Below are positions 4,585-61,801 of a stretch of 64,000 nt of DNA, piece after piece. Source of the DNA: a virus; the IMG/VR virus record IMGVR_UViG_3300009073_000002. One strand, 5' to 3'. Numbering within the stretch: position 1 is the first letter of the stretch; each line of letters begins with the position of its first letter. The notes under the pieces are model-generated. The model was not told where the DNA came from and ran no database searches. It worked only from the letters and a program-made list of their open reading frames with translations. The translations under genes and the position numbers were made by a program.

Positions 4585-5625
4585 ATGATTGCAGAAGAAT
4601 TAAAAAGTAATGACCTGACATGGTTGAGAATTTACAATGGTGTCATAGTCCAGACCCTAGCTAAGGGGTATGAGCCGCCACAAGGATTAGCGGAGGATCA
4701 GTACATGTCAAGGAAAATAACCAAAGGGAAGTATCAGGATCAGAATGAGTATTATAAAGAATATAAAACTCTTACTGGTCTAATGAAGCCACCTCAAGTC
4801 AAAAGAGGTCAATTTGGTCTTGAAATAATGGTTTTCCTAGATTCTGGAGGTACAGACGTTTGTTTGACTTTAAGCACGAAGGATAATGCAGGTCAAGCAT
4901 TTATGAGAGCATTTAGGAACATTAGACTTAACGAACAAATTAAGTTTAATGGTCGAAGATATAATCGTAAAAGTGATGGCAAAGAGACTACTGGATTCTG
5001 GATGTATCAGAGAGGGAATGATGGAACATTTGAAGCAGGAAACTCTCAGGTAAATGATTTTCATTTGTGGGATGATTTACCAAAACCAATAAAAAGATAT
5101 GATGCTGATAAAGGTAGAGAAGTAGACGATTATGGACCTGCACAAAAGTTCTTGTTTGATTCATTGGTTGCTACGCTGACACAAGTTTATCCTGGTTGGT
5201 ATTATGATGCTCAAAGTGGTAAAGGAAAGGTTGTTAACACAAATAACAATCAGCAACAGAATTATAATCAGAATCAACAGCAACAGCAGAATCAGCAACA
5301 GAATTATAATCAGCAGAATCAGCAACAGCAGAATCAGCAGCAGAATTATAATCAGCAACAGAATCAGCAGCAGAATTATAATCAGCAGAATCAGCAACAG
5401 AATCAGCAACAGCAGAATCAGCAACAGAATTATAATCAGCAACAGAATCAGCAACAGCAGAATACTCAGCAAAATCAGCAGCATAGTTCGCAGATTAGTC
5501 AAAATCAGCCCCTGATGGGTGATCCTAATAAGCAGCAACAATATCAGCAAAATCCACCACCGCCAAGTCAGGAGCAATATGGTGAGCAGTTTAATCAAGG
5601 AGTACCTGACGACCTTCCATTTTAA
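4585..5625 (+). CDS. SSB-like protein with Q/N-rich low-complexity linker and acidic DDLPF C-terminal tip
   Basis: The C-terminus ...GVPDDLPF resembles the bacterial SSB tip DDDIPF. About 90 aa of N/Q repeats (QQNYNQ) lie before the tip. The gene sits in the replication module. The N-terminal fold is not recognisable by eye. Confidence 0.55.
   Translation: MIAEELKSNDLTWLRIYNGVIVQTLAKGYEPPQGLAEDQYMSRKITKGKYQDQNEYYKEYKTLTGLMKPPQVKRGQFGLEIMVFLDSGGTDVCLTLSTKDNAGQAFMRAFRNIRLNEQIKFNGRRYNRKSDGKETTGFWMYQRGNDGTFEAGNSQVNDFHLWDDLPKPIKRYDADKGREVDDYGPAQKFLFDSLVATLTQVYPGWYYDAQSGKGKVVNTNNNQQQNYNQNQQQQQNQQQNYNQQNQQQQNQQQNYNQQQNQQQNYNQQNQQQNQQQQNQQQNYNQQQNQQQQNTQQNQQHSSQISQNQPLMGDPNKQQQYQQNPPPPSQEQYGEQFNQGVPDDLPF
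5242..5500 (+). repeat. imperfect tandem CAG/CAA/AAT repeat tract encoding the Q/N-rich domain
   Basis: Reiterated cagcaacagaattataatcag units. The ORFs on other frames and on the opposite strand (5161..5598, 5204..5515) are repeat artefacts. Confidence 0.85.
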
Positions 5626-17974: not shown

Positions 17975-18208
17975 ATGGACTCTAAACTAGAAGAAGCAGT
18001 AGATCTCATTTTAGAAATGGGTTACTGCAGTGTATCAGCTATTCAAAGGAATTTAATGCTTGGTTATAATCGAGCATGTGGGATTATTGCTGAAATGGAA
18101 AAGCTAAAAATAGTTGGTCCGGCCAGAGGAACAAGACCTAGGGATGTGCTGATAGTAAGTAAAGACGAATTAGGTGAACTACCCACCCACGCCAGAGGCG
18201 ATGGGTGA
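17975..18208 (+). CDS. FtsK-gamma (winged-helix) domain protein; 3' end runs into the TnpB element
   Basis: LEEAVDLILEMGYCSVSAIQRNLMLGYNRACGIIAEMEKLKIVGPARGTRPRDVLI matches the FtsK gamma domain. The last ~10 codons are antisense to the tnpB 3' end. Confidence 0.8.
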   Translation: MDSKLEEAVDLILEMGYCSVSAIQRNLMLGYNRACGIIAEMEKLKIVGPARGTRPRDVLIVSKDELGELPTHARGDG

Positions 18209-18300
18209 GGCTTCAGGAGTCATCACTCCAACTAACGTCGGCAGTTCGTCCTGATTTTCAGTATCTATCCCAGACACCGTTTTATTTAAAGCAAAAGATT
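18159..18300 (-). ncRNA. predicted TnpB omega/right-end RNA (extent approximate)
   Basis: In known TnpB systems the guide RNA derives from the tnpB 3' end plus the right end of the element. Here a CACCCACGCC-AGA-GGCG-A-TGGGTG hairpin abuts the stop codon. Confidence 0.35.
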
Positions 18301-19440
18301 TAATATTTATGGCAGCATTAACATCACGATCAAGAACAGTAGAGCAACTGTTACAAGTCCACTCTCTATCCGAAAGTTGGAGGTCGTTGTTTATGCTACC
18401 ACAATTTGAGCACGTTTTACTTGAAGGAGCAAATCGACCTATGCGAAGAATATTATTCCCATACCATTCGGCTTTATATTCAAGCATATTCACAAAAGTA
18501 GACCAACTGGCGTCGGTTATCGCTTGTGCTAAGTTGTGGTTCTTAACCATATTTTTTACTGCAAGAGTTTCTAAAGCTATCGTTTGGTTCTCACGAATTA
18601 ACTTAGTCGAAACTTTGTGTAAAAAATCTTTTCTTTTATTTACTACATCTTCATGGAGTTTGGCAAGGCGTAGCCTTGACCTCTTTCCTTTATGTTTTGA
18701 ATACCTACGTTGTGCAAATCTTAATCTAGATTGCGCTTTACGTAAATACGTAGGGTTTTCAAATACTTGGCCATCTGAAGTGATAGCAAAATCTTTAATT
18801 CCAAGATCAATACCTATTGTAGATTCAGATTTTACTTTAGATTTGGCAGGAATCGATTCACCAGTATCGCAGAGGATAGAAGCAAAATACTTACCAGTAG
18901 GAGTTACACTAATAACAGCACTTTTAATTAATCCTTTGGTTGGTCTATGTAGAATTATCTTAATACCTTTCTTTCCAAACTTAGGTATAATCAATCGGTC
19001 TTTTTTTATTTTTAGATACTGCGGTACAGCAAATGATCCTCGATTGGACTTCTTTTTGAATTTAGGAAATCCTTCACCTTTAAAGAACCTTTTAAAAGCA
19101 ATATCCATATTTTGGATTGATTGTCCTAAAGATTGCGAGTTTACTTCTTTTAGAAATTCAAATTCTTTCTTTAAATCTGGGAACTGCTTAATTAAATCGA
19201 ATGCAGATAAATTCACTTTATTTCCTAAGTATGCAGAATTCTTAGTCTCTAAAGCTAGATTATACACTAATCTACAACATCCAATATGTTTATGGATGAG
19301 AACCTTTTGAGATTCAGTAGGATATATTCTGTATTTGAAAGATTTATACATTAAATATTATAACTATAATGTTTTGAGAAAAGTTTCAGTATCTCAAAAT
19401 TATTTTAAATATAAGATTAAAAGGAGTCGTGTAATAAATA
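18170..19440 (-). mobile_element. TnpB-only IS200/IS605-family (IS1341-like) element; ends approximate
   Basis: A TnpB ORF with a GC-rich hairpin at its 3' end (18184..18207) and an imperfect palindrome TTTTGAGA...TCTCAAAA upstream (19371..19398). No tnpA gene is present. Confidence 0.6.
18179..19351 (-). CDS. tnpB: TnpB RNA-guided endonuclease (OrfB_IS605 + zinc ribbon)
   Basis: YRIYPTESQKVLI...CCRLVYN, RuvC-I IGIDLGIKDFAITSDG, E in ALETLAVKNM, CSNCG...CNSC...DRDVNAAINI. Confidence 0.9.
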   Translation of the reverse strand: MYKSFKYRIYPTESQKVLIHKHIGCCRLVYNLALETKNSAYLGNKVNLSAFDLIKQFPDLKKEFEFLKEVNSQSLGQSIQNMDIAFKRFFKGEGFPKFKKKSNRGSFAVPQYLKIKKDRLIIPKFGKKGIKIILHRPTKGLIKSAVISVTPTGKYFASILCDTGESIPAKSKVKSESTIGIDLGIKDFAITSDGQVFENPTYLRKAQSRLRFAQRRYSKHKGKRSRLRLAKLHEDVVNKRKDFLHKVSTKLIRENQTIALETLAVKNMVKNHNLAQAITDASWSTFVNMLEYKAEWYGNNILRIGRFAPSSKTCSNCGSINNDLQLSDREWTCNSCSTVLDRDVNAAINIKSFALNKTVSGIDTENQDELPTLVGVMTPEASPIASGVGG

Positions 19441-19447
19441 AAAAGTT

Positions 19448-19455
19448 TATATTTG
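19448..19455 (+). promoter_or_regulatory. Bacteroidota-type -7 box TATATTTG upstream of the structured RNA candidate
   Basis: TATATTTG, then 8 nt, then GGGGG at 19464. Confidence 0.45.
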
Positions 19456-19463
19456 TAATATAT

Positions 19464-19875
19464 GGGGGCGAATTGAATCGACTGGAAGCAGTTGGGTGTT
19501 GGTCGTAGCAAGATGGAAACTATCTGTAAAAGTTTCAAACCTTAATTGGAAACGATTATACAAACTCAAGCAAGGATCTCCAGGAGGTTGTTGCAAGTGA
19601 GGCAGATTTCGCGATAGCTGATCTGTTAGAAGGTACTGGCGTTGCCTCTTCATTCGTGAAGGAAAATGCACAGTTGGAGTTAGTCTAACCAAACATCCTG
19701 CATCGGGAGAAATAATAGATGATGGTGGAGCTGCCATTGGCAGCCTTTAGAGGAAAGCTTTATACAAACCTATGCTACTAAAAAGACTGATATTAAACGC
19801 TTAGCAGGACCTCGGGTCGTACCGAGCGCTTCCACGAAGCACTCTTTAGCAAATAGCTAGAGAGTGCCATTATTC
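19464..19875 (+). ncRNA. orphan structured RNA candidate (about 410 nt) with a tmRNA-like 5' end
   Basis: ORF-free and visibly more GC-rich than its surroundings. It has a UUCG-capped hairpin (19647..19662), a 12-bp terminal hairpin (19839..19867) and long-range pairing TGGAAGC (19483) with GCTTCCA (19828). Confidence 0.4.
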
Positions 19876-19894: not shown

Positions 19895-20128
19895 ATGCCA
19901 AAAAAAATGGGTAAAAAAACATCTTATGGTAAAGATGTAAAAGGAGCTGAGAAGAGAGGAACAGGAGGTGGAGCGAGAAGAAAGATTGCATCTTTAATGA
20001 AGAAAGGATGGACACAATCTAAAATCGGTAAAAGAGTCGGTAGATCAGCTAGTACTATCTCTCAAATTCACACAGGAGCAATTCAGGATGTACCTGCAGG
20101 TCTCGCTGCTAAGCTAAGAAAGATTTAA
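19895..20128 (+). CDS. small basic helix-turn-helix protein
   Basis: GWTQSKIGKRVGRSASTISQIHTG looks like an HTH. Confidence 0.55.
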   Translation: MPKKMGKKTSYGKDVKGAEKRGTGGGARRKIASLMKKGWTQSKIGKRVGRSASTISQIHTGAIQDVPAGLAAKLRKI

Positions 20129-20332
20129 AGTGACTTTAGATCAAAGATTAATGGAGTCTAAGCAAATATGGTTAGACTCCATTAAAAAATACAAACCATA
20201 TAAAGTGAGATCAGTAATAAGTAATTAATAACCATTTAAAATCAAATAATAATCAAATCAACAACAACAATATCTAATTTAAAAAAAGAGAATGTTTTTG
20301 TATCGTTTTCAGGAGGTAGAACATCAGCTTAT

Positions 20333-21124
20333 ATGTGCCAGTATTTGCTTAAAAATCATCCTGATAATAACTATCAATTTTTATTTGCTAATACAGGTAA
20401 AGAAAAGAAAGAGACTTTAGATTTTGTACATAATTGTGATGTGGAAATGGGGCTTAATTTATCTTGGATAGAGTATGATCCCCAAGACGAATATGGAAAG
20501 AAAAACTGGTTTAAATTAGTTGACTATGAAACTGCTTCAAGAAATGGAGAGCCATTTGCTAAATTCATAAAGAAGGAAAGAATACCTAATTCGGCATACC
20601 CTAATTGTAGTGGTAGACTTAAATCTTTACCAATGCATAATTATATAAAATATCACCTTAAATGGGAAGATTATTATACATGTATAGGTATCAGATATGA
20701 TGAAAGGAAAAGGGTTAGAAATTGGGTTAAAGCTAATGAGAAAAAATACTTATATCCTTTAATAACTGATCATCGAATTGATGAAATGTTTGTAAGGAAT
20801 TATTGGGCCAAACAAGATTATGATTTGAACTTGAAAGATTATCAAGGTAATTGTGATTTTTGTTACAAAAAATCATTTAGAAAACTACTTACTTTAGCAA
20901 GTGAAGATCCAGATGGTTTAGATTGGTGGTCAGAAATGGAGGAAAAACACGGTGACGGATATACTTTCTTTAGGGATAATATTAGTGCAAATGAAATAAG
21001 AGAGTTATCTAAAAATAAGAGATTTGAAAAAGTTAAGGACTTACATCAACAAAGAAATATCAGTAATTATTTGTTCGATATGGATGCAGAAGCCACTTGT
21101 TTCTGTAACTTAGATGAATATTAA
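20333..21124 (+). CDS. PAPS-reductase/PP-loop ATP-pyrophosphatase family protein (true start unresolved, upstream of 20333)
   Basis: The PP-loop motif VSFSGGRTSAYM is encoded in frame at 20300..20335, before the first in-frame ATG. See the finding for 20151..20335. Confidence 0.7.
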   Translation: MCQYLLKNHPDNNYQFLFANTGKEKKETLDFVHNCDVEMGLNLSWIEYDPQDEYGKKNWFKLVDYETASRNGEPFAKFIKKERIPNSAYPNCSGRLKSLPMHNYIKYHLKWEDYYTCIGIRYDERKRVRNWVKANEKKYLYPLITDHRIDEMFVRNYWAKQDYDLNLKDYQGNCDFCYKKSFRKLLTLASEDPDGLDWWSEMEEKHGDGYTFFRDNISANEIRELSKNKRFEKVKDLHQQRNISNYLFDMDAEATCFCNLDEY

Positions 21125-21147
21125 TAACCATTTAAAATCATAAATCA

Positions 21148-21526: not shown

Positions 21527-21634
21527 ATGAAACATGAACTGAGTCCTCTTTATGTCAAAGAAAACAAATTAGAAAGGCTAAAAATCAGATTAAAGAAACT
21601 GGAAATAGCGATTATCACTCGTCTCATTGCGTAG
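21527..21634 (+). CDS. small hypothetical protein (35 aa)
   Basis: An internal ATG of track ORF 21443..21634 that avoids overlapping the upstream gene. The 3' end lies inside the hairpin at 21611..21663. Confidence 0.3.
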   Translation: MKHELSPLYVKENKLERLKIRLKKLEIAIITRLIA

Positions 21635-21663
21635 GCTTTGAGATGGGCGATATGAGTGATAAT
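21611..21663 (+). repeat. GC-rich hairpin closed by ATTATCACTC/GAGTGATAAT (10 bp)
   Basis: Perfect 10-bp outer stem. Member of the ATTATC...GATAAT hairpin family. Confidence 0.7.
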
Positions 21664-21733
21664 GGATTGAGTGCATACGTCTTCTTTTTCTTCCTGCGGG
21701 GAGGGCATTACTTAAACTAAAATATTTATTAAA

Positions 21734-22039
21734 ATGACAATACTATTAGAAGACAGAATCAATAAGATATTCGATGAATTATACGAGATCAGATATAGCG
21801 AAGTAGAAGCTGACAAATATTACATACAAATAGATGTGTGGGACAAAAAAAGCCAAAGTGTACACTCATCATTACTTACAAGGCAAAAAGAGAATCTTTA
21901 TCTATCTGAGGTCAAGGCTCAAGTAATAATACAGGCTTGTGGATTTGTAATAGATAAGTACGAAAGAATGAAACACGAGAAACAATCTTCTATAAACGCA
22001 ATAAAAAAAGCGTTGGCAAAAGAGGAAGAAAAAATATGA
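21734..22039 (+). CDS. hypothetical protein
   Basis: 101-aa ORF. Confidence 0.55.
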   Translation: MTILLEDRINKIFDELYEIRYSEVEADKYYIQIDVWDKKSQSVHSSLLTRQKENLYLSEVKAQVIIQACGFVIDKYERMKHEKQSSINAIKKALAKEEEKI

Positions 22040-22130
22040 CGTTATGCACTCTATTATCAGTAAGCGAAGGGATTGAGTATAATGGAGTAGCCGATATGTG
22101 GAGTTTATTTTTTTTAATTGAGCAGAGCAA

Positions 22131-22364
22131 ATGACAGACAAATCATTCTTACAAAGCAAATGGAAGCCTTTCGAGATAGTTAGGTTTAAATGCAGTCACT
22201 TCAATAGAGAAATAGAAGCCATCATAGTGGGGATGGATTTTGAAGATAGAACATTCAATATTAGACCACTGGATGTAGAAATGTATGAAGATGAATTAGT
22301 GACAGTAAATATGAGCGAAATAAAACGTGGAGGCATACCAAAGCTGAGGGTGGTAAAAAAATAA
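22131..22364 (+). CDS. hypothetical protein
   Basis: 77-aa ORF. Confidence 0.5.
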   Translation: MTDKSFLQSKWKPFEIVRFKCSHFNREIEAIIVGMDFEDRTFNIRPLDVEMYEDELVTVNMSEIKRGGIPKLRVVKK

Positions 22365-22382
22365 ATTCCATCATATCGGCTT

Positions 22383-22414
22383 ATTATGTGGAGTCCGTAG
22401 GATTACACCATAAT
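22383..22414 (+). repeat. hairpin ATTATG...CATAAT
   Basis: Member of the hairpin family. Followed by ATAATAGAAAATGATAAC. Confidence 0.5.
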
Positions 22415-22483
22415 AGAAAATGATAACGATAGTCGCTATCATCAAATGGAAAACAAATCTTAAACAACAGTAAAATATAAAGA

Positions 22484-22750
22484 ATGAAATACTTAAAATC
22501 AATATCCACAAAAGCGATTATCTGTTATCTATTGTTATCTATAGTATCCTGCTCAAATGTTTGTTTAAACCCCGACTGCCGTTTTGAGCAATTGGAAGCC
22601 CCAATTACATTGACATCTAAAAGCTTCAATACAATAATCCTGACGGACAGCAATGGTAAAATATGGCAATCATCAACGGGCTGGAATATTGCTCAAAACA
22701 TTCTAACAGATGGATATCAAATCGGAGATACAATAGGATATTATAGATAA
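22484..22750 (+). CDS. putative lipoprotein
   Basis: Signal peptide with a lipobox-like LSIVSC. Confidence 0.55.
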   Translation: MKYLKSISTKAIICYLLLSIVSCSNVCLNPDCRFEQLEAPITLTSKSFNTIILTDSNGKIWQSSTGWNIAQNILTDGYQIGDTIGYYR

Positions 22751-22864
22751 TGGGCGTCGCGTATGCGACTGTTTGAATTGCGTCATACGCGTAATTATCC
22801 TCTGCGGTCACGCTGCGACGCCCATTATCCACCACAACAGGTCATCAGACCGTGGTGGATAATG
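22747..22864 (+). repeat. 118-bp double-hairpin palindromic element, copy A (MITE-like)
   Basis: Nearly identical to 23551..23666. A 14-bp stem ATAATGGGCGTCGC/GCGACGCCCATTAT plus a 12-bp stem ATTATCCACCAC/GTGGTGGATAAT. Confidence 0.85.
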
Positions 22865-22959
22865 GAAAATGATATACGATGCGACTGAAAGGAGTAGCGT
22901 TATATCTATAATTATCTGATGGAACGAAGTGAAATGAACTGTTAAAATAAATCAAAATC

Positions 22960-23271
22960 ATGTACAATAAAGACTTAATCGAAGTACGACAAAAAGCAAT
23001 TCTTAACGAAGATACTTCATGTGTACGAAAGTTAGAAAATGTAGGTAGACTTAAAGGAGGTGCTACCATAGGAATCAAGTGGAAAGACTACGATCAGAGT
23101 GACATAGGTTACTTATTCCAAATGCCAGAAATGGAAGATGATGTATATGACTACTATATTCATGTACCACAACCACAGAATCCAATCGGAATGGACACTG
23201 CACCTCCTGTATGGACTCACTTAATAGAATTGCTTTCTAACGAGATGGTTGTTAAAATCACGGTGCTTTGA
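22960..23271 (+). CDS. hypothetical protein
   Basis: 103-aa ORF between the two repeat copies. Confidence 0.55.
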   Translation: MYNKDLIEVRQKAILNEDTSCVRKLENVGRLKGGATIGIKWKDYDQSDIGYLFQMPEMEDDVYDYYIHVPQPQNPIGMDTAPPVWTHLIELLSNEMVVKITVL

Positions 23272-23349
23272 TTTATTTTAATTGCAGATAATGAAAAATG
23301 ATAACTCTCGTCTATCTCGTGTGGGTGGGCGAACTAACTATAAATAAAA

Positions 23350-23490
23350 ATGAAGATTACAATATCGATAATGTATATAATAAGCGGAACACTATTCTTT
23401 CTTGCAGACAATATAGGACTAAGCGTAGCCTGTTGTGGTATGTCAATATGGTATGGATACGAAGCTGAAAGAGGGATGAGAGATATATGA
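23350..23490 (+). CDS. small membrane protein (46 aa)
   Basis: Read manually: MKITISIMYIISGTLFFLADNIGLSVACCGMSIWYGYEAERGMRDI. Confidence 0.35.
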   Translation: MKITISIMYIISGTLFFLADNIGLSVACCGMSIWYGYEAERGMRDI

Positions 23491-23550
23491 GATGTTATCT
23501 ATTATTATACAGAGTCCTATGGGTGGGCTTTGTGTAGTGCTGGATTCTGT

Positions 23551-23666
23551 ATAATGGGCGTCGCGTATGCGACTGTTTGAATTGCGTCATACGCGTAATT
23601 ATCCTCTGCGGTCACGCTGCGACGCCCATTATCCACCACGCGGTCATCAGACCGTGGTGGATAATG
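23551..23666 (+). repeat. 116-bp double-hairpin palindromic element, copy B
   Basis: Differs from copy A only at CAC-GC-GGTC versus CAC-AACA-GGTC. Confidence 0.85.
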
Positions 23667-23734
23667 TAGTTGTGATAAGATGAGTTAAATCCTACCTTGA
23701 GGGTAGGCAAATTAGTAAACAATAAATTAGAAAT

Positions 23735-23932
23735 ATGAAAGTATACAAAGCATTACAATACTCAATATTAAAACTTGGTCCAATACCAATAGAATTTCAA
23801 GAAGAAGCTATTTTTCACACAGCTACAGACTTATTAGAGGTAGAACTTAATTTAGACTTTTCAAGATTTGAGCAACTTATAGACGACGAATGGATATTAT
23901 TAGAGGACTTGAAAAAACGAAGAACTTTATAG
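23735..23932 (+). CDS. hypothetical protein
   Basis: 65-aa ORF. Confidence 0.5.
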   Translation: MKVYKALQYSILKLGPIPIEFQEEAIFHTATDLLEVELNLDFSRFEQLIDDEWILLEDLKKRRTL

Positions 23933-23969
23933 AAGCGTTGGCGTAGGATTTCATTCATTCTTATCACGT

Positions 23970-24025
23970 ATTATCATCTGTCCTTCGTGGGTGGATTTTG
24001 AGACGTGGTAAGGATGGATGATAAT
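23970..24025 (+). repeat. hairpin closed by ATTATCATC/GATGATAAT (9 bp)
   Basis: Member of the hairpin family. Followed by ATAATTACTTGATAAA. Confidence 0.65.
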
Positions 24026-24078
24026 TACTTGATAAACATACCCAATGTAGAACCACCACTGACAACCAATAACTTAAC

Positions 24079-24300
24079 ATGGTTACAAAAGAAATAATAA
24101 GTAAATGGAAGTGCGAATCAATACTGATTACCTCAGATAACCAAGTATATAATCAAAGAGGTGTTAAATTAAAAATGCAGCTCAAAGGATCAAGTAAAGG
24201 GTATTACATTAATAGAAGATTTAGAACGCTTAAATGGATCAAAAATAATTGTATTTTAGCTTCTGTATTAATTAAGCAAGACATCTTATGTCCTTTTTAA
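24079..24300 (+). CDS. hypothetical protein
   Basis: 73-aa ORF. Confidence 0.5.
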   Translation: MVTKEIISKWKCESILITSDNQVYNQRGVKLKMQLKGSSKGYYINRRFRTLKWIKNNCILASVLIKQDILCPF

Positions 24301-24312: not shown

Positions 24313-24699
24313 ATGCAAGAATTTGACGGATTAAAAAATCCAATAGAAAAAACAGAGGTTCAAGAAAAGAAAAAGAACCAGAAGCATGTAGGTCGCATTA
24401 ATATGAGGCCAGGGATGAAGGTATTTAAGTGGTTTGATGGCGACGTCAAGGAGCTCAAAGATGACGACTATGAATACTTGCCAGTAGAGATAAGACAGAC
24501 TACATCTCTTATTCCGAGAAAGGAAGGTCGGATGCTTCGCTATGATCCTAAGACAAAGTTAGTTCCAAAAAGAAAGGTGAAGGTTACTCAGCATGAGTTG
24601 AATAATGGAGTCTTATTTATAGAAGCGCTGAACAGAAAGAATGCAGTAAAGAAATTTCAAAAAAAAGGCAAGTATATAAAGCCGAAGAACTTGGTTTAG
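24313..24699 (+). CDS. hypothetical basic protein
   Basis: 128-aa, K/R-rich. Confidence 0.6.
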   Translation: MQEFDGLKNPIEKTEVQEKKKNQKHVGRINMRPGMKVFKWFDGDVKELKDDDYEYLPVEIRQTTSLIPRKEGRMLRYDPKTKLVPKRKVKVTQHELNNGVLFIEALNRKNAVKKFQKKGKYIKPKNLV

Positions 24700-24729: not shown

Positions 24730-24758
24730 ATCCCCTCTCCGGGGATATTTTGATTTTT
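24730..24758 (+). terminator. intrinsic terminator
   Basis: ATCCCC-TCTCC-GGGGAT followed by ATTTTGATTTTT. Confidence 0.5.
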
Positions 24759-24772
24759 GATTCTAAATGGTT

Positions 24773-24800
24773 GGGGTTAAGGCGTGATTTCCTTAGCCCC
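24773..24800. terminator. 10-bp hairpin between convergent genes
   Basis: GGGGTTAAGG...CCTTAGCCCC (one G-U pair). Confidence 0.4.
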
Positions 24801-25700: not shown

Positions 25701-28700
25701 ATGCCTCAGATAGAAGCGAGATTTGATCACATGTACACCGATGGTATTCCCCAAGAGTCACCATCAATGAAGTATAGAAACGCATACGGATGGTCTAAAT
25801 TGCAAGATGCAGTACGTACTGGATACATCTCAACAGAGACTGCAAATAACATCAAAGCAAGCCTACCGTCAGGCTCAGATATTAGAGGATGGTACTACAT
25901 AGAAGAAAGAGATTGGCACATATTTCTCAATCAAGTAGGTGGTACTGATGAAATAGGAGTCTACAAAGAATTAGAATGCAAGTACTATCGAGTTGTTAGA
26001 GATGGTGACCTAGATTGCCCATTAGAATTATCATCTTGTAGATGGTTCCAGATGGCAGTTAATGTCCATGGAAATTGCAATAGAATCAAAATCCATTATT
26101 CAGATAATAAGAATATGTATCGAGTGGTTGATATCACTGATCCATGTTGTGAGCTTAAAGAAGGCTCTCTGAACGATACAAAGCTACTGAAGTGCACTTG
26201 TATACCAACTTTAAAGAAAACAGTACTCAATGGCCATGGACGACTGCCAAATGGATCGTATAGAGCCGCGCTGATGTTGTTTGATGAAGATGGTAATGAT
26301 ACAAACTACTCTATCACTACTCATTCAATGGTTGTCAGTGATAATAGCCATAGAGTAGGTGAAGTAAGTGATTCAGCTATTTTGATAGAAGCATATGGAC
26401 TCCCAGAGGGATATACTTTCGGAAGATTAGTTATTGTCGAGGTAGTAAATGGAGCAGAGAGATATCGAGTGATAGATAGAATCGGTATCGGACAGGGGAG
26501 ATTAAAATTCACGTACACAGGAAACGAGGGGTACTATGAGGAAGGTATAGCTGAAGATATTCGATTAAGAAAGAGAAGATGGTTTAAGGGTGCAGGCATT
26601 CACAATCATAATGGAATTCCTATTTTCTATAACATTGAACCTGAGAGAAATTGGGATCTACAAAGATTAGTCAATACTTTCAAGGTTAGATACTATCGAT
26701 ATGCAGTTCCTGCTAATGAAGCTAAGTATTATGAAGGATTTAGACCAAATGAGATCCTTTCTTTTTCTATTAATTTCAATCTTAAAGGTGGTAGAAAAAC
26801 TAAAGCTTTTATTCTTTCAAATGACAATGTAGTAACTGGTGGTGAAGTTGTTACTACTTGTGATGGATGTAAGATTCCTTTCTGGTTTGCAAATGATACT
26901 TCTAAAAGAATAAATGGATACAGTACAGTAGAAGAAGCTATAGAGGCTCAAGAAAGAAAGAGTCAAGGAGTTAACCAAGATTTTAAAGTTAGTGCCTCTC
27001 CAACAATGAAAATCACTAAGACTGATGGGAAAGCATCATCTAGTGGATATGGTCCTACTATGAATTATTGTGAGTGTTTTGAATGCATTAATACGCTTCA
27101 GAAGTGCTACAAAGAGTTCATGCTTCAAATTATTATCTTCTTAAATTGTATTACTTCTGCTATTAATTTTGTTTTAGATTTTATATCAGGAGATGATGGC
27201 TCAGGTTGGAGCTGCCCAACATTGGCTTTGACTGATGCTACTGACGATTGCTCATGTGACAAAGTATCTAAATGTGCTAGTTTACGTGCTGAAGCAAATG
27301 CTAGAAGTACTGTTGATAGAATAGTTGACGAGACCTACCTTGACAATAATGAAGACATCATTGAGTTTAGAGAAGGCGAAAGAAACAATCCTGCTGCGTC
27401 TGGTGCTGATGAAAGTCAGTTTACTTACCTTAAATCTGAATGGAAATGTGGACCTGACTATAAAGATGGAGACTTCCTAGTCCACAATCAGATTACTTTT
27501 AAATGTATTGGTGGTTATTGGCATTACGTAAATGGTAGCCACATCTTCGAACCACATCCTGCCGTTAATTTTGACAATAAAAATATTCCTTTAGCTCTTA
27601 AAGAAAGAGCTCTTGGCCGTAATGGTAACTCCCATGTCGCAGGAGATGAAAACGATGAAGACTGTATCCCAATCAGAACAAAGCCTATTTACTTTAGTCA
27701 TGGTTGCTTTGGATATGCTGAATCAGAAGAATTGTATCCTGAAACGATCAGTCGATTAGATTGTGAGAAGATGTATGGAGATCTAGCAGGAAAGCCAGTT
27801 CGACACTTCAGAGTGCCATCTAGTACTAAAGAGGTTCATTTTGCTTCTACTGGATCAAATGTAGAAAGTCATCTAAACCCTGCAAATAATGTACTGGATA
27901 ATACATGGGTTATACTAACAGGTCTTAGTGTTGAAGGGATTGAAATTCCAGATGAATTACAACCTTACCTTTGTGAGAATCAACCATTTGATATCAATCA
28001 AGCGCCATTATTAGAAGCTGAAAAAACAGTACTTAATAGTGGAATACTTCATGGAACATTCGAAGGTCCAATATATGGAGAGACGCATTTACATCCTAAA
28101 CATGGAGTTAATAGTCCTGAGTTTTATGATCCTGCAATACAAAGGGCATTCAACAACTCATTCAGGCGAGGATCTGCAAGTACTGTTCCTGCATATATTT
28201 TGCAGTCACCTGATGTTATGCTCTATAGAAATAGAATGGATGCTCACTTCTGGATTACAGAATTGGAAGTTTATGGACAAGGAATCAGGTACGGACATTA
28301 TGCAAATGGATTAGAGCCAGAAAAATCAACTATTCCAAGATTTAATCAGGCAGGAGTAAGGCAAGGAGTCAATCTTAATAAGTCTACAACGGCAGCAATT
28401 GGCGAGACACCTATATTTAGATGTATCAAAGGAATGCAGTTTGTAGAAGCTGATGGTAGTGTTGGTACAACAGGTGAGTTTACATATAGATTTAACAATA
28501 AGTGGAGAGAGTCAGGAATGTATATTGAATTTGAAGGTGATAAAGATGGGTTTAGTGATCCTTTTGCCTTCGAATATGGAAGTACAAATGGAGGAGATGA
28601 TGAAAGTGATACAAGCTTCATTGGTGATGGGATTGATCATTTTGCTTTAATTCCAGATGCTAGAGCTTGGTATGGTTCATCATTGAGATTCTTACCAAGA

Positions 28701-31145
28701 CAATATGGTGCAGTGGCCAACAGAACTTATGTTCCGCTCGGTTTATCTGGTACTAAGTTAGATTATCATCAAAAAACAGGTATTGTAGTTCAAGGGATAG
28801 TTGGTTCTTCTAGTGTTGGTGATTATAGCTATAAGAGAACTTCTGTTTTGTCAGATAAAGTTCATGAAGAGATCAGTACTAATCCTTCATTTGGAATAGT
28901 TGCTAATTTCTTAGATAATCTAGGGATAGAGATACCAGACTTTATGAATCCTTTTATTGAAGCTTTAGATGCGTTCTTCAATAATCTACTTGGGAATATA
29001 GGATTTATAGATTGTGGTACCGTACCACACACAGGAGATGAAAATGATGTAAGGAATAGATTTAACCTAAGACCTGGAATGCGTGGTATTACGGATACTA
29101 CAGGCTATACTGTTACTGCTCCTGCTCAGGGCGAATGGGCTGATGTGTTCTTTCCTAGTGCTCTTTCTACATTCGTTAATATCTTCGTGCCATCAGATGC
29201 TAAGTTAGGATATCGAGGTACTGGAAGTATTCAACTTCGAGAATCAATAGAAGACCCTTCAAGTATAGCTGAAGTATTTTATCGTAAGCTTAAAACCCTA
29301 TTCCTTGACAGTAGCTTCCCTAATGGAGCGAATTGGAGACTATCTTGGATGAATCGATTCTTTAAGAAACTAATCGAACCACCTAGATGGAAAGTTTTAC
29401 TTAGAGTTCTTCTGAATATACTTTGGAAATTCGGCATAGGATTTTATTTAATAATTGAAGGTATTGATCATCTTAGTGAGAATTTAGCCAATACTGTATT
29501 AGGTCCTGGATCTACTTCAGTTACATCGGCTATTGGAATTGCAATAGGTGTATTCTTAATTTTACTCGGTCTTGCTTGGATTATTTTTTGGGCTGGTAAT
29601 GATCTAATGACCAAAGTGTTTGACAGACTCCTTCAGTTAGATGGTTGCTATCCAGATATTGAGAACGGTCAACACGTAACGGCTGCAGGTGGTAGTAAGT
29701 GGCAAATGAAGCTAGGAGAGCACCTCAGAGGACTCGAAGACAACTATTATTACTATAATATTGATTACAATGTAGTTAATTGGTTAGAAGTGATATTTGG
29801 CATACCTGTGAATTACGATACTGAATGGTGTCCAGAAGAATACAGTACTGATATCATTGCAGGACAGATGCAGAATCCAAAGAGTCATATTAATGCTTGG
29901 AGGAATGTAAGAACAGATGAAAATTTTAGTATTCCTAGAACTAGAGGCGCTATTACAAGAATGGTTACTCGAGGGGATAGATTATTTGCTCACACTACAG
30001 ATTCGTTGATTCAAATTAGAATTGATAAGAATGGTAGGTTTATTGATAACACTGATTTATTTGGAGGTGTAGAGACTGGTTATGCAGGGAACAAAGACCC
30101 GAATGCGTCCGCTAATTTGCCTGATGGTTATTGGTGGTGGGATAGAGATGCTAGAAGACCATACCGAATGTCTAATGGTATCCAAGAGCAACCATTCACA
30201 GGAATGGAGGATTACTTTGATTGTAACTGGGGGCTGAACATCTTGGAGCATTGGCCAGACTTCGACAAAGTTGATCAGAAATGTAAATCAGGAGTACACT
30301 ACGATATTGCATTCGATAAAAAGAATGACATACTCTACTTGTATAAGAAAGATTACAAGCTGAAAGAAGGTGTTCATAAAGATAACAATGGTAAGTGGGT
30401 TTATCAGAAACAGAATTGTGATATCAAGAATCTTGATTTCTGGGAAGAAGATAATTTGTTGATCTCATTTGACACTAAGAGAAATGAGCAGCAATACATA
30501 TCAAAGCATTGTTGGGATGCTGAGGTATTTATCTGGAATAGGTTTGATATGATGACAATTAAGAATGATAAGATTGCTAGTCATTGGACCAAAGGTAGAT
30601 TCAATAATTTCCATGGAACTCAGTATCATTCGTATATTGATGTAACAATACCGATTGCTTTAAAGAATAGATCTGTTTCTAAGATTAATTCTGTGAGAAT
30701 AGTTGGTGAATTGATTGAGCACTTACCAGGAGGAATCAAAAGAGAGCTTATCGATGAGAGATTGGTAGAGAGAATCATGCTTTACAATGGATATCAGTCT
30801 ACTGGATGGATGTCTGTGAGGTATAGTGATGAAGAAGACCAGTACAGTACATCAGCTGAGTCTAAGGATGGTGAGTGTGAGATTAAGGTAGAAAATAAGG
30901 TCAATGGATTTAAGATTACTAAAATCAAAAATGCAGTTCCTAAAGGAAGCCCAGTATTTGATCGATATAATCCTGAGATTAAGGATTATGATAACAACTA
31001 CAAGATTACAAGTGTTACAGAATCAGATACATTGACAGATGATTTTGTAGGTGTAAGGATGATTGTAAAGAAGGCTGCAAACAAGCAAGTCATACTTCGG
31101 GCTGCCATGGTTGACTATGATCCCTTAGAGACTGGAGTGGAATAA
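25701..31145 (+). CDS. giant (1814 aa) Cys-rich structural protein with internal TM helices
   Basis: An uninterrupted 5.4-kb ORF. Hydrophobic helices are encoded at about 29390..29600. Function is inferred from size only. Confidence 0.7.
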   Translation: MPQIEARFDHMYTDGIPQESPSMKYRNAYGWSKLQDAVRTGYISTETANNIKASLPSGSDIRGWYYIEERDWHIFLNQVGGTDEIGVYKELECKYYRVVRDGDLDCPLELSSCRWFQMAVNVHGNCNRIKIHYSDNKNMYRVVDITDPCCELKEGSLNDTKLLKCTCIPTLKKTVLNGHGRLPNGSYRAALMLFDEDGNDTNYSITTHSMVVSDNSHRVGEVSDSAILIEAYGLPEGYTFGRLVIVEVVNGAERYRVIDRIGIGQGRLKFTYTGNEGYYEEGIAEDIRLRKRRWFKGAGIHNHNGIPIFYNIEPERNWDLQRLVNTFKVRYYRYAVPANEAKYYEGFRPNEILSFSINFNLKGGRKTKAFILSNDNVVTGGEVVTTCDGCKIPFWFANDTSKRINGYSTVEEAIEAQERKSQGVNQDFKVSASPTMKITKTDGKASSSGYGPTMNYCECFECINTLQKCYKEFMLQIIIFLNCITSAINFVLDFISGDDGSGWSCPTLALTDATDDCSCDKVSKCASLRAEANARSTVDRIVDETYLDNNEDIIEFREGERNNPAASGADESQFTYLKSEWKCGPDYKDGDFLVHNQITFKCIGGYWHYVNGSHIFEPHPAVNFDNKNIPLALKERALGRNGNSHVAGDENDEDCIPIRTKPIYFSHGCFGYAESEELYPETISRLDCEKMYGDLAGKPVRHFRVPSSTKEVHFASTGSNVESHLNPANNVLDNTWVILTGLSVEGIEIPDELQPYLCENQPFDINQAPLLEAEKTVLNSGILHGTFEGPIYGETHLHPKHGVNSPEFYDPAIQRAFNNSFRRGSASTVPAYILQSPDVMLYRNRMDAHFWITELEVYGQGIRYGHYANGLEPEKSTIPRFNQAGVRQGVNLNKSTTAAIGETPIFRCIKGMQFVEADGSVGTTGEFTYRFNNKWRESGMYIEFEGDKDGFSDPFAFEYGSTNGGDDESDTSFIGDGIDHFALIPDARAWYGSSLRFLPRQYGAVANRTYVPLGLSGTKLDYHQKTGIVVQGIVGSSSVGDYSYKRTSVLSDKVHEEISTNPSFGIVANFLDNLGIEIPDFMNPFIEALDAFFNNLLGNIGFIDCGTVPHTGDENDVRNRFNLRPGMRGITDTTGYTVTAPAQGEWADVFFPSALSTFVNIFVPSDAKLGYRGTGSIQLRESIEDPSSIAEVFYRKLKTLFLDSSFPNGANWRLSWMNRFFKKLIEPPRWKVLLRVLLNILWKFGIGFYLIIEGIDHLSENLANTVLGPGSTSVTSAIGIAIGVFLILLGLAWIIFWAGNDLMTKVFDRLLQLDGCYPDIENGQHVTAAGGSKWQMKLGEHLRGLEDNYYYYNIDYNVVNWLEVIFGIPVNYDTEWCPEEYSTDIIAGQMQNPKSHINAWRNVRTDENFSIPRTRGAITRMVTRGDRLFAHTTDSLIQIRIDKNGRFIDNTDLFGGVETGYAGNKDPNASANLPDGYWWWDRDARRPYRMSNGIQEQPFTGMEDYFDCNWGLNILEHWPDFDKVDQKCKSGVHYDIAFDKKNDILYLYKKDYKLKEGVHKDNNGKWVYQKQNCDIKNLDFWEEDNLLISFDTKRNEQQYISKHCWDAEVFIWNRFDMMTIKNDKIASHWTKGRFNNFHGTQYHSYIDVTIPIALKNRSVSKINSVRIVGELIEHLPGGIKRELIDERLVERIMLYNGYQSTGWMSVRYSDEEDQYSTSAESKDGECEIKVENKVNGFKITKIKNAVPKGSPVFDRYNPEIKDYDNNYKITSVTESDTLTDDFVGVRMIVKKAANKQVILRAAMVDYDPLETGVE

Positions 31146-59544: not shown

Positions 59545-59617
59545 AGGGATGTAGCTTAGTGGCCAGAGCGCGTATTTTGGGAATACGAAGGCGAGTGTTC
59601 AAATCACTCCATCCCTA
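59545..59617 (+). tRNA. tRNA-Pro (UGG); CCA encoded at 59618..59620
   Basis: Manual cloverleaf: acceptor AGGGATG/CATCCCT, anticodon loop TTTGGGA, T-arm GAGTG-TTCAAAT-CACTC. Confidence 0.85.
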
Positions 59618-59625
59618 CCAATTAT

Positions 59626-59699
59626 GGTAGCCTTGTGCTGTTTTGCAATGCAGCCGGACTGTGGATCTGGTGCGACGGGTTGGATTCCCGAGGTTTACC
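59626..59699 (+). tRNA. tRNA-His (GUG) with encoded G-1; atypical D and T loops
   Basis: Anticodon arm CCGGA-CTGTGGA-TCTGG. G-1 lies opposite C73. One acceptor mismatch. The D loop lacks GG and the T loop is TTGGATT. Confidence 0.55.
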
Positions 59700-59706
59700 C
59701 AATAAT

Positions 59707-59779
59707 AGCCATGTAGCTCAACTGGCAGAGCGCTTCCCTACGAAGGAAGGGGTTGGGAGTTCGACTCTCTCCATGGTTA
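59707..59779 (+). tRNA. tRNA-Arg (ACG)
   Basis: Acceptor AGCCATG/CATGGTT, anticodon loop CTACGAA, T-arm GGGAG-TTCGACT-CTCTC. Confidence 0.85.
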
Positions 59780-59823
59780 CTAAAATTTTAAAAATCGACG
59801 GCGCTTCGCGCCTAGATACACAT

Positions 59824-59903
59824 GGTCAGGTAGCCACCCTCCTCTTCTAAAGGAGTAAGTGTAATTGGAGCTGAAAATCGGGGTTCGAATCCCTGTCTGA
59901 TCA
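59824..59903 (+). tRNA. atypical tRNA-like gene, anticodon-like loop UCU (Arg)
   Basis: 7-bp acceptor GGTCAGG/TCTGATC and T-arm CGGGG-TTCGAAT-CCCTG. The hairpin CTCCT-CTTCTAA-AGGAG starts only 8 nt after the acceptor strand and is followed by 23 nt. Confidence 0.4.
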
Positions 59904-59928
59904 CTATTAAATAATAAATTTATTATTG

Positions 59929-59936
59929 TATATTTG
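59929..59936 (+). promoter_or_regulatory. -7 box TATATTTG
   Basis: 17 nt upstream of the ATG at 59954. Confidence 0.45.
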
Positions 59937-59953
59937 TAAAAAATATATTAATT

Positions 59954-60220
59954 ATGACAGCATCGGAATTGTTAAATAAAGTACTGACTAAAGTATTTGC
60001 ACTTCAATCTTTATCTGGTAAAATCAGGATAAAGACTGAAGAAAATAAAATGCAAGAACTAAATCTGTTTATTGTCTACTCTAATCATCCTGTTCAGTAT
60101 AACAATAAAATAAGTATTCTGAATTCTGATGATCATGATCTTGAAGAAATTTGGGAACAATTCAAAGAAGATGTTGATACCAATATAAGAGCAATTGATC
60201 ATATCGTTAATATGCCTTAA
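59954..60220 (+). CDS. hypothetical protein
   Basis: 88-aa ORF between tRNA genes. Confidence 0.55.
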   Translation: MTASELLNKVLTKVFALQSLSGKIRIKTEENKMQELNLFIVYSNHPVQYNNKISILNSDDHDLEEIWEQFKEDVDTNIRAIDHIVNMP

Positions 60221-60229
60221 ATTACACAA

Positions 60230-60302
60230 TGATGGTTAGCATAACTGGTTAGTGCATCGGGTTTTGGTCCCGAGGGATGGAGTTCGAGTCTCCGACCGTC
60301 AT
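60230..60302 (+). tRNA. tRNA-Gln (UUG)
   Basis: Acceptor TGATGGT/ACCGTCA, anticodon loop TTTTGGT, T-arm TGGAG-TTCGAGT-CTCCG. Confidence 0.85.
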
Positions 60303-60317
60303 CTAAATTACTGTTTT

Positions 60318-60614
60318 ATGAATGATACAAACATACCTGGTCCTTCCTTTACGGACTTTCTATATGCTGATATACCTACATTTACATCAGGTGAAGGTGT
60401 AGATACTCTTGAATATTTCAAACCTATCATACCAGATCCTGGTCCTAGACAGTTTAATTTATTTGTAGGCACCGAAGGATTCTTTCTTATTAGTGACGGG
60501 TTTAAAGATGAAAGAGATCGATCAGAACGTAAACACTGGCTAGCTCAAAGAATAGCTTACAGGAACCTGATCGATGGTAGAGAATATTACTCACGATTTA
60601 ATAGCCCAGTATGA
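60318..60614 (+). CDS. hypothetical protein
   Basis: ATG at 60318. The longer track ORF (60252) would overlap tRNA-Gln. Confidence 0.55.
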   Translation: MNDTNIPGPSFTDFLYADIPTFTSGEGVDTLEYFKPIIPDPGPRQFNLFVGTEGFFLISDGFKDERDRSERKHWLAQRIAYRNLIDGREYYSRFNSPV

Positions 60615-60784
60615 GAAGATTTATAGGTCAGGAGATAGATGTCGGATCATTCTATACTTTAAGATACAGGTGGGTTTACCTGCCAAATGAGGCCTACATC
60701 GAAGTTCCGCGGCAAATCCGACCATCAGTGCACTCAAACAAACAAAACATCCTCTACAGCGGCCAAAAACTACTTATCCGATGA
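60611..60784 (+). CDS. small hypothetical protein (57 aa)
   Basis: Read manually. ATGA overlap with the upstream stop. Confidence 0.4.
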   Translation: MRRFIGQEIDVGSFYTLRYRWVYLPNEAYIEVPRQIRPSVHSNKQNILYSGQKLLIR

Positions 60785-60906
60785 ATAAATACTACAAACA
60801 AGCTATTATTGAAAGATATCAAAGCCACAATGGATGCTTATCATGCTTTATATTTATTATCTGGATTTTAGTAATGCTTATTGCATTGATACTTTCTTAC
60901 TCATGA
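60781..60906 (+). CDS. small membrane protein (41 aa)
   Basis: Read manually. ATGA overlap. TM segment FIFIIWILVMLIALIL. Confidence 0.35.
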   Translation: MNKYYKQAIIERYQSHNGCLSCFIFIIWILVMLIALILSYS

Positions 60907-61590: not shown

Positions 61591-61771
61591 TTTTTGATTT
61601 TATTTGTTCTTTAAGCCATAAAAAAGCTATTTCTTTTGATTCAAAATCAGAGCTTGCATCTGATACATATACACCAACTCTTTGTTTAGTGCTTTTAGCT
61701 ATAAATGATACATAATGCTCTGTTCCATTATGCTCTACCTCTGTTAATTCTATAAATCTATCTAAAGTCAT
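61583..61771 (-). CDS. hypothetical protein
   Basis: 62-aa ORF. A TATATTTG box ends 4 nt before the ATG, so the mRNA may be leaderless. Confidence 0.5.
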   Translation of the reverse strand: MTLDRFIELTEVEHNGTEHYVSFIAKSTKQRVGVYVSDASSDFESKEIAFLWLKEQIKSKNE

Positions 61772-61801
61772 AAATCAAATATACAAAAAATTTTTATTTA
61801 G

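Follow-up and report, generated by a model that had tools for sequence, protein, structure and literature searches.

What is the function of the recurrent hairpins that separate a row of small genes in the virus record IMGVR_UViG_3300009073_000002 (IMG/VR)? We analyzed a window of 64,000 nucleotides (nt) of this record, whose contig amounts to at least 132 kb in total; all positions given below refer to this window. Its segment from 21.6 to 24.7 kb is an accessory block of small open reading frames (ORFs), mostly ORFans. An earlier note, made from the sequence alone, had described the region from 21611 to 24025 as a cassette-like array in which small ORFs are each followed by a GC-rich hairpin with a conserved ATTATC/GATAAT base, and had likened it to integron attC arrays and to the stem-loops of phage hyperplastic regions. 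The answer that we tentatively favor is that the block may consist of six autonomous expression modules, the boundaries of which would resemble the promoter early stem-loops (PeSLs) of T4-type phages and act via the sense-strand RNA, most plausibly by re-initiation at a phage-specific promoter.

Hairpins, boxes, and units of the array

The five hairpins located in the earlier note were all recovered on the plus strand, with RNAfold z scores ranging from -2.7 to -6.2. H1 (21611-21663; ATTATCACTCGT/ATGAGTGATAAT, with the base ATTATC/GATAAT; z, -3.96) overlaps the stop codon of an ORF of 35 to 63 codons that ends at 21634, and it marks the start of unit A, the first of six units designated A to F. 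The base of H2 (22383-22414; z, -2.66) is ATTATG/CATAAT. H3 (22824-22863) and H4 (23628-23665) are both formed by ATTATCCACCAC/GTGGTGGATAAT, H4 being a copy of H3 with a 2-nt indel in the bulge, and H5 (23970-24025; z, -3.45) has a 16-bp stem, ATTATCATCTGTCCTT/AAGGATGGATGATAAT. Two further plus-strand elements are absent from the earlier note, namely, Ha (23504-23555; ATTATACAGAGTCC/GGATTCTGTATAAT; z, -3.6) and Hb. The latter is an 84-nt, GC-rich element of inverse orientation, GATAAT-GGGCGTCGC...GCGACGCCC-ATTATC, which is present in two copies (22746-22829, z of -6.15; 23550-23633, z of -5.97) and ends in 15-bp perfect terminal inverted repeats. Ha, Hb, and H4, as well as Hb and H3, abut without a spacer via common terminal hexamers: the second Hb copy has TATAAT in common with Ha and ATTATC in common with H4, and the ATTATC of the first copy is common to H3. 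Together, Hb and H3 form a 118-nt direct repeat (22747-22864, plus strand) that is 97% identical to 23551-23666, and the identity both starts and stops at an ATAAT. The Hb copies are 100% identical over approximately 89 nt, and the adjoining H3 and H4 differ by one indel and one substitution. A peptide-coding nature of the repeat was rejected, since the 2-nt indel changes the frame between the copies. Hb may itself encode a small structured RNA; no Rfam or tRNA match was obtained for it.

To count such hairpins, we required ATTAT, at least six further contiguous pairs, and ATAAT, and we scanned the entire 64-kb window as well as 300 dinucleotide-preserving shuffles of it, which served as the chance model. 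Five hairpins were observed, all of them within 2.4 kb (21611-24025), whereas the shuffles gave 0.24 on average and at most 2. The same count for other A/T pentamer pairs never exceeded 2. Because H3 and H4 are copies of one 118-nt repeat, four of the five counted hairpins are independent, in addition to H2. A pair table bears out that the hairpins keep the same A/T base: stem positions 1 to 5 are invariant (A-T, T-A, T-A, A-T, and T-A). Position 6 is C-G in most elements, a compensatory G-C in H2, and A-T in Ha, and positions 7 to 12 vary from element to element with pairing maintained, so that the distal stems do differ and yet remain complementary, as had been proposed.

The observation that no hairpin is followed by a U-run also stands. 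The tails read GGAAAATG, AGAAAATG, GTAGTTGT, TACTTGAT, and GGATTGAG, and none of the array hairpins was called as an intrinsic terminator, that is, as a GC-rich stem-loop with a U-run. Classical hairpins with T-runs do occur elsewhere in the same phage (19839-19867, 24730-24746, and 24773-24800), and the array hairpins therefore form a distinct class; two of these classical terminators (24730-24800, plus strand) end the array where it meets convergent minus-strand genes. In Rfam searches of the whole window at the gathering threshold and of 17.9 to 25.8 kb at an E value of ≤1, no match was obtained in the array, nor was one found there in the tRNA and transfer-messenger RNA (tmRNA) scan. The earlier statement that each hairpin lies at or just after a stop codon applies in part: H1 overlaps one, but H3 and H4 are located 74 and 138 nt past the stop, with Hb and Ha intervening.

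The hexamer (G/C/T)ATAAT occurs eight times in the 2.4 kb, and each copy is the 3' end of a helix (the 5' end in the case of Hb) that is closed by ATTAT(C/G/A). All six units open with (G/C)ATAAT-N4-7-TGA(T/G), situated 59 to 102 nt upstream of the first ATG. The boxes of the plus-strand units B to F are CATAAT-AGAAAA-TGATAAC (22409-22427, 75 nt upstream of the ATG at 22484), GATAAT-GGAAAA-TGATATA (22858-22876, 102 nt upstream of the ATG at 22960), GATAAT-GAAAAA-TGATAAC (23287-23305, 63 nt upstream of the ATG at 23350 and without a local hairpin), GATAAT-GTAGTTG-TGATAAG (23660-23679, 75 nt upstream of the ATG at 23735), and GATAAT-TACT-TGATAAA (24020-24036, 59 nt upstream of the ATG at 24079). 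That an ATAAT, a spacer, and TGATAA follow most hairpins is thus correct, and the combination is largely confined to the array, which contains five of the six ATAAT-N4-8-TGATA in the window. Three of the unit boxes are nearly identical over 17 to 19 nt, including the unpaired, purine-rich linker, and this conservation of the linker argues for sequence-specific recognition by a protein. The second GATA...TATC palindrome reported downstream is readily recognized in units B and C but is weak in D, and its arms in E pair over a long range; after the unit C box, a hairpin in the 5' untranslated region is formed by GATATA...TATATC (22871-22906, plus strand). A -35-like (C/T)TTTGA(G/T) is found 14 to 17 nt upstream of four of the eight boxes, namely, in the loops of H1 (which contains GGCTTTGAG), Ha (which contains GGGCTTTGTG), and H5 (TTGAGA, 16 nt upstream of GATAAT) and upstream of box D, and one combination of the two elements matches a sigma70 promoter at 10 of 12 positions. 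The array ORFs had been called promoterless-looking, a description that does not hold, as each unit has its own conserved box.

The genes of the six units are all encoded on the plus strand. Unit A contains three ORFs (21734-22039, 22036-22134, and 22131-22364). Unit B encodes an 88-amino-acid (aa) lipoprotein with a signal peptide and the Cys residue (ORF B, 22484-22750), the TAA stop of which is inside a GATAAT box, and unit C encodes a protein of 103 aa (ORF C, 22960-23271), a strict ORFan with no homologue among 5.8 billion proteins. They are followed by a 46-aa membrane peptide in unit D (23350-23490), a 65-aa protein in unit E (ORF E, 23735-23932), and two ORFs in unit F (24079-24300 and 24313-24699). 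No array ORF matches a Pfam family, and none is present in three distant relatives of the phage. ORF B is the only one with homologues, which are 16 small and distant proteins of at most 60% identity; none of their loci was retrievable.

Stems that enclose genes and the strand that folds

Apart from the local hairpins, several plus-strand stems enclose ORFs. (i) The last ORF of unit A (22131-22364) is bracketed by TGGAGTTTATTTTTTT (22099-22114) and AAAAAAATAAATTCCA (22355-22370), the sole mismatch of which is a plus-strand G.U. (ii) Most of ORF B lies within a stem of 17 to 18 bp (22534-22751) formed by GTTATCTATAGTATCC (22534-22549) and GGATATTATAGATAAT (22736-22751), so that the GATAAT at 22746 pairs with GTTATCTATAGTATCC at 22534; the unit B fold has a z score of -4.0, and the stem is present in both its minimum free energy (MFE) and centroid structures. 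(iii) The entire ORF C is contained in a giant hairpin (22911-23292) with an outer stem, ATTATCTG (22911-22918)/CAGATAAT (23285-23292), and a perfect 15-bp inner stem, TTAAAATAAATCAAA (22942-22956)/TTTGATTTATTTTAA (23267-23281). When the 427-nt unit is folded (z, -3.1), this hairpin is present in the MFE structure as well as in the centroid, and it supplies the box at 23287 with an ATTATC partner that the earlier note had missed, namely, ATTATCTG at 22911, 375 nt upstream. (iv) Around ORF E, the centroid fold contains a stem (23672-23967) between GTGATAAG-ATGAGTTAAATCCTAC (23672-23695) and GTAGGATTTCATTCATTCTTATCAC (23943-23967); its 5' end is the TGATAA box, and GTGATAAG pairs with CTTATCAC (within 23943-23967) directly before H5. 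The TGATAA element is the 5' arm of the following helix in units B, C, and E: in unit B, TGATAAC and the nucleotides after it (22421-22437) pair with 22513-22529, and the unit C counterpart pairs locally.

In a blind test for complementarity between the 5' and 3' flanks of ORFs, a score of at least 11 was reached by 4 of 10 array ORFs but by none of the 64 other ORFs in the window (Fisher test, P of about 2e-4), and the bracketing complementarity in array ORFs extends over 11 to 16 nt. The same test applied to the relatives and to the crAss-like phage phi14:2 gave background values only.

The folds are biased toward the sense strand. The hairpins contain 18 G.U pairs when folded as the plus strand and 2 when folded as the minus strand, and the plus strand is the more stable one, by 3 to 8 kcal/mol, in six of eight hairpins (for H5, -20.6 versus -12.6 kcal/mol). 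In the long-range stems, three of the four mismatches are plus-strand G.U pairs. Base composition is not the cause of this bias, since the product of the G and T frequencies is nearly equal on both strands. Furthermore, stems that span 200 to 380 nt cannot be cruciforms. Taken together, the G.U bias, the plus-strand stability, and the span of the stems are read most simply as features of the sense transcript, which is evidence against mechanisms in which the template or bottom strand folds, such as N4-type promoters and attC sites.

Promoter, processing site, or recombination signal

The promoters used elsewhere in the window provide a reference for the array box. The source is probably a novel crAss-related phage of a Bacteroidota host. 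The window has a G+C content of 35%, its genes are on the plus strand up to about 31 kb and on the minus strand from there on, and the tRNA/tmRNA scan detected 13 tRNA genes between 59.5 and 64 kb. A plus-strand ORF of 1,814 aa (25701-31145) has three homologues among the 5.8 billion proteins, at 35 to 42% identity, two of which show weak or faint matches to the Pfam family crAss_MUZ (crAss muzzle protein). GroEL and other matches lead to phages of Flavobacteriia, at about 26% identity, and the leaders at gene starts in the window are A-rich and lack a Shine-Dalgarno sequence. TAnnTTTG, the -7 box of Bacteroidota, is present within 120 nt upstream of 10 of 65 non-array genes, in most cases between -27 and -57, and the mapped promoter P070 of phi14:2 has a box of identical form (TTGACT...TATTATATTTG). 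This host-type box precedes none of the six unit-first ORFs, and the array box is found at no gene outside the array, so that the two are mutually exclusive. Host-type promoters were consequently rejected for the array, which contains no TAnnTTTG, and a promoter at the array box would need a phage factor or polymerase.

On the reading that we favor, a boundary would comprise at least one helix closed by 5'-AUUAU(N)...(N')AUAAU-3', a single-stranded and mostly purine-rich linker of 4 to 7 nt, and then UGAUAA, which would open the first helix of the following module and often pair with the far end of that module, placing the ORF within a long-range stem. Acting as a stop or attenuator that needs no U-run, the upstream helix would generate and protect the 3' end of the mRNA before it, and the DNA box (G/C/T)ATAAT-N4-7-TGATAA would create the 5' end of the next one by re-initiation from a compact phage-specific promoter in which the 3' arm of the hairpin serves as the -10-like element. 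We infer that the RNA boundary falls in the 4- to 7-nt linker because GAUAAU has to share its RNA with the upstream partner and UGAUAA with the downstream partner. The resulting short mRNAs, with their 5' and 3' ends paired as panhandles, would be stabilized and perhaps limited in their translation. In a secondary role, the common motifs may provide short homologies for recombination that shuffles the modules; the 118-nt duplication from ATAAT to ATAAT is what motif-mediated recombination would yield, and it is the sole hint of such a process. Of this scheme, the structures with their conservation, covariation, strand bias, and placement relative to genes are observed directly, and the RNA ends in the linker, the promoter nature of the box, and the use of the motifs in recombination are deduced from them.

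A promoter is favored over cleavage because the hexamer is conserved in the manner of a -10 element, with the first base free and ATAAT fixed, and is accompanied in part of the copies by a -35-like element, and because the host-type box is mutually exclusive with it and a long precursor has no identifiable upstream promoter. Several points weigh against this reading. The -35-like element is missing from the short hairpins H2, H3, and H4, and the boxes at 22746 and 23550 lead into Hb instead of an ORF. To our knowledge, the primary sigma factors of Bacteroidota use no TATAAT-type -10 element. A hairpin without a U-run is no proven terminator for any polymerase of this system, and the G.U bias is based on few independent stems. 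Finally, cleavage in the linker gives the same RNA ends, and the sequence cannot separate a promoter from processing; either mechanism would lead to a set of short mRNAs with paired ends.

Processing alone is thus the alternative closest to the promoter reading. One or more polycistronic transcripts, without internal promoters, would be cut by RNase III at the long stems, or by an endoribonuclease with sequence specificity in the linker beside the AU-rich helix end, and mRNAs with hairpin-protected ends would be released. The sense-strand wobbles, the missing U-runs, and the stems of 16 to 24 bp around whole ORFs, which are reminiscent of rRNA processing stalks, agree with such a scheme. It would likewise place the boundary in the linker, as GAUAAU and UGAUAA are both within RNA helices, and the ORF-less boxes at 22746 and 23550 are easier to account for as structure than as promoters. 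However, no upstream promoter for a long transcript was identified, there being no TAnnTTTG from 19448 to the array, and H2, which is short and weak (-8 kcal/mol), is a poor RNase III substrate. The only phage ribonuclease found in the window is an RNase H-like ORF, and the hexamer conservation, with an invariant ATAAT and a free first base, suits a -10 element as well. We regard processing without promoters as possible but somewhat doubtful.

Alternatively, gene cassettes might be inserted, excised, or swapped at the ATTATC...GATAAT hairpins, either by a site-specific recombinase of the integron type that escaped our view or by homologous recombination on short repeats, with ORFs B, C, and E as hairpin-loop insertions. 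The order of inverse core, variable stem, and core downstream of arrayed small ORFs is attC-like, the 118-nt duplication is bounded at both ends by ATAAT, ORFs B and C lie between the arms of family-type stems as if inserted into a loop, and the array genes are ORFans. In line with the earlier statement that no recombinase is visible, however, the approximately 50 ORFs scanned in the window contain no integrase or recombinase domain and no invertase or HUH enzyme. Of mobile elements, the only gene present is tnpB, at a distance of 2.3 kb, and the homology between it and its counterpart in a relative extends no further than the ends of the gene. Moreover, ORFs 22131-22364 and 21734-22039 have brackets of unrelated sequence, which fits RNA pairing better than a common site. 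The likeness to integron attC sites that had been proposed also breaks down in detail, because the conserved ends read ATTAT(C/G/A) and (G/C/T)ATAAT instead of RYYYAAC and GTTRRRY, no IntI or other integrase is visible in the window, and the better-folding strand is the wrong one: recombination at attC depends on a folded bottom strand with extrahelical bases, whereas here the minus strand folds more weakly in six of eight hairpins and the wobbles are on the sense strand. DNA recombination signals are therefore unlikely to be the primary function, and we judge equally unlikely the more specific proposal that the helices (ATTATC...GATAAT and GATAA...TTATC) are the recognition or crossover structures of a hairpin-guided cassette exchange, integron-like but with other sites and a hypothetical enzyme, in which Hb plus H3 would be ORF-less cassettes.

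The hairpins might alternatively be selfish or neutral palindromes, a small family resembling repetitive extragenic palindromic (REP) sequences or miniature inverted-repeat transposable elements (MITEs) that has spread by local duplication and has no role in expression. The near-identity of the two 118-nt copies, the perfect 15-bp terminal inverted repeats of Hb, and the strictly intergenic position of the elements point in this direction. Against it, the stems have diverged and nevertheless remain paired, with three pair types at position 6, which indicates selection, and their placement with respect to stops, starts, and the downstream box is regular. All copies are within 2.4 kb of the 64 kb, with none elsewhere in the window or in the collections scanned, and neither a RAYT gene nor target-site duplications were found, so that an assignment to REP sequences, bacterial interspersed mosaic elements, or MITEs, which are dispersed over a genome in many copies, was rejected. 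We consider this origin very unlikely, and we assign a still lower probability to N4-like hairpin promoters, at which extruded DNA hairpins would recruit an injected virion RNA polymerase of the crAss type, with a preference for single-stranded templates, and early transcripts would start just downstream. In favor of such promoters, a crAss muzzle-like protein is encoded by the phage, promoters of the host type are missing from the array genes, and the AT-rich stem bases favor extrusion. The crAss-like polymerase gp66 accepts single-stranded DNA as a template but does not transcribe double-stranded DNA, and no linear motif common to the early promoters of phi14:2 was found (bioRxiv 10.1101/2020.03.07.982082). 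On this reading, the box and hairpin would represent the long-sought early promoter class of the crAss-type virion RNA polymerase. However, the hairpins of the template (minus) strand are the less stable ones, stems of 12 to 20 bp with loops of 4 to 30 nt or more contrast with the 5- to 7-bp stem and 3-nt loop of N4, and stems of 200 to 380 nt cannot extrude as cruciforms. Comparable hairpins were not found in the early region of phi14:2, and no polymerase gene, N4-like or other, was identified in the window. An assignment to the N4 type was accordingly rejected.

Relatives, neighboring genes, and known systems

Close relatives were not found in any of the collections searched. A DNA similarity search against 50,697 phage records, profile scans of IMG/VR and JGI data for further relatives, and pattern scans of IMG/VR, JGI metagenomes, and GTDB genomes for Hb and its inverted ends were all negative. 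Exact-protein look-ups returned only two contigs (L001 and L002), which are 100% identical to the window where compared and therefore carry no variation, and those made with ORFs close to the ends of the window gave no extension of it. The contexts of homologues of a phosphoadenosine phosphosulfate (PAPS) reductase-like ORF were rejected as relatives, since they belong to unrelated phages, and the contexts of the muzzle-protein homologues (35 to 42% identity) contain no ATTAT/ATAAT hairpins, array ORFs, or gene brackets. The lineage of the 1,814-aa ORF has three detectable relatives in the 5.8 billion proteins and none in IMG/VR. The nearest relative, L010, of which positions 1-2026 were considered together with this ORF, has an ORF of 5,249 aa without Pfam annotation further upstream. 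A 500-nt gene-free and G+C-richer stretch lies upstream of a block of small ORFs in a distant relative, L011 (7130-7636).

The sole transposon-type gene of the window is tnpB (18179-19351, minus strand), which encodes IS605 OrfB and Cas12f-like TNB domains and is present without tnpA. The copy in L010 (8354-9532; 62.5% protein identity) is just upstream of the muzzle gene, in the opposite orientation. The ends of this IS200/IS605 element, a type with subterminal hairpins contiguous with tnpA/tnpB, were considered as a source of the hairpins and rejected, as DNA homology with L010 stops within 40 nt of the gene ends and the array is 2.3 kb away. A short plus-strand ORF (17975-18209), which by eye resembles an FtsK-gamma or winged-helix domain, overlaps the convergent 3' end of tnpB with its own 3' end. 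Approximately 400 nt (19440-19870, plus strand) are noncoding and have a G+C content above that of the surroundings. A -7 box of the Bacteroidota type (TATATTTG at 19448) precedes this stretch, and the classical terminator at 19839-19867 with its T-run closes it; the stretch looks tmRNA-like, with GGGGGCGAAUUGAAUCGAC at the 5' end and a T-arm/acceptor-like 3' end, and ARAGORN made a tmRNA call only at the 80% threshold. It has no Rfam match and no homologue in the loci fetched, and the gene-free stretch of L011 is not similar to it. An ORF at 19895-20128 (77 aa) matches sigma70 region 4 with 24.9 bits, the Pfam cutoff being 24.1, and also matches other helix-turn-helix families; it is the only nearby candidate for a phage factor that might act at the putative promoter. 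A 20-mer, TTAATAACCATTTAAAATCA, occurs twice and may be another intergenic signal: the copy at 20226-20245 precedes the listed start of the PAPS reductase-like ORF by about 90 nt, and that at 21122-21141 overlaps the stop of this ORF, just upstream of a 119-aa ORF. Elsewhere, a Q/N-rich tandem repeat with periods of 27, 42, and 72 nt is found at 5248-5480, inside ORF 4585-5625. The 13 genes of the tRNA cluster (59545-63984) are on both strands and interspersed with small ORFs, two of which encode 148 aa (61144-61590 and 62819-63265), the latter with a weak HNH_3 match.

Of the known systems, attC arrays have in common with this array an inverse core, a variable imperfect palindrome, and a core, of variable length and arrayed 3' of small ORFs. 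They differ in that the array has no IntI, attI, or Pc and that its units carry promoter-like boxes. The short early genes of T7 and T3 are separated by RNase III sites, which, like the array hairpins, are structures without U-runs that determine where mRNAs end and leave hairpins that protect these ends. In rRNA operons, the 16S and 23S processing stalks are long-range stems that enclose a functional RNA. Structure and position of the array elements are compatible with a T7-type site; however, several hairpins are shorter than typical RNase III substrates, and an invariant AU-rich helix end with a conserved single-stranded box is not a known determinant of this enzyme. Phage morons are likewise accessory genes of small size, as are those for the lipoprotein and the membrane peptide in the array, with their own upstream signal and downstream hairpin, in a block between conserved modules. 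However, morons normally have promoters of the host type and ordinary terminators and occur one by one at scattered places, whereas the array has six units with one private set of signals. In the short mRNAs of the hok/sok type, the 5' leader pairs with the 3' end around the ORF, which in hok makes the mRNA more stable and keeps it from being translated. In the array, neither an antisense RNA nor a toxin family was identified, and the pairing sequences differ from unit to unit.

The best reading is that the PeSLs of T4-type phages are the closest known system, as a functional analogue. They consist of a stem-loop terminator and an early promoter, are located beside ORFans, and mediate recombination and shuffling (Arbiol et al. 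2010, PMC2839356; Comeau et al. 2014, PMC4122927). Indels and replacements between closely related phages have their junctions in these motifs, and mini-circles arise. The likeness to stem-loops of hyperplastic regions that the earlier note had suggested is supported: a small, composite, and stable stem-loop with a conserved promoter-like box is repeated between ORFans, all copies being located among ORFans at 21.6 to 24.0 kb; each unit has a hairpin and a box; the stem sequence varies among copies; and duplication and shuffling of modules are associated, in the array as the 118-nt ATAAT-to-ATAAT duplication. The two systems differ in several respects. A PeSL has a complete promoter beside the stem-loop (-35, a spacing of about 17 nt, -10, and an AT-rich upstream region, as in sigma70 promoters), whereas the -10-like hexamer of the array, present in every unit, is the 3' arm of the hairpin itself, a -35-like element accompanies four of the eight boxes, and the box is not of the Bacteroidota promoter type. 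The array also has TGATAA as a second conserved element and some long-range stems that enclose ORFs, and its phage is crAss-like and not T4-like.

The expression of accessory and early genes in crAss-like phages is poorly known, although Crassvirales and their relatives are among the most abundant phages. The signals of the array are compact, consisting of a box of 17 to 19 nt and a helix with an invariant AU base, and are restricted to a single ORFan block. A promoter at the box would point to a class of transcription specific to the phage, and a cleavage site would point to T7-like punctuation of mRNA in a Bacteroidota phage. In either case, the enclosure of ORFs in panhandle helices would be an unusual packaging of short mRNAs, and the concept derived from PeSLs, in which regulatory cassettes double as recombination handles, would extend beyond the T4-type phages.

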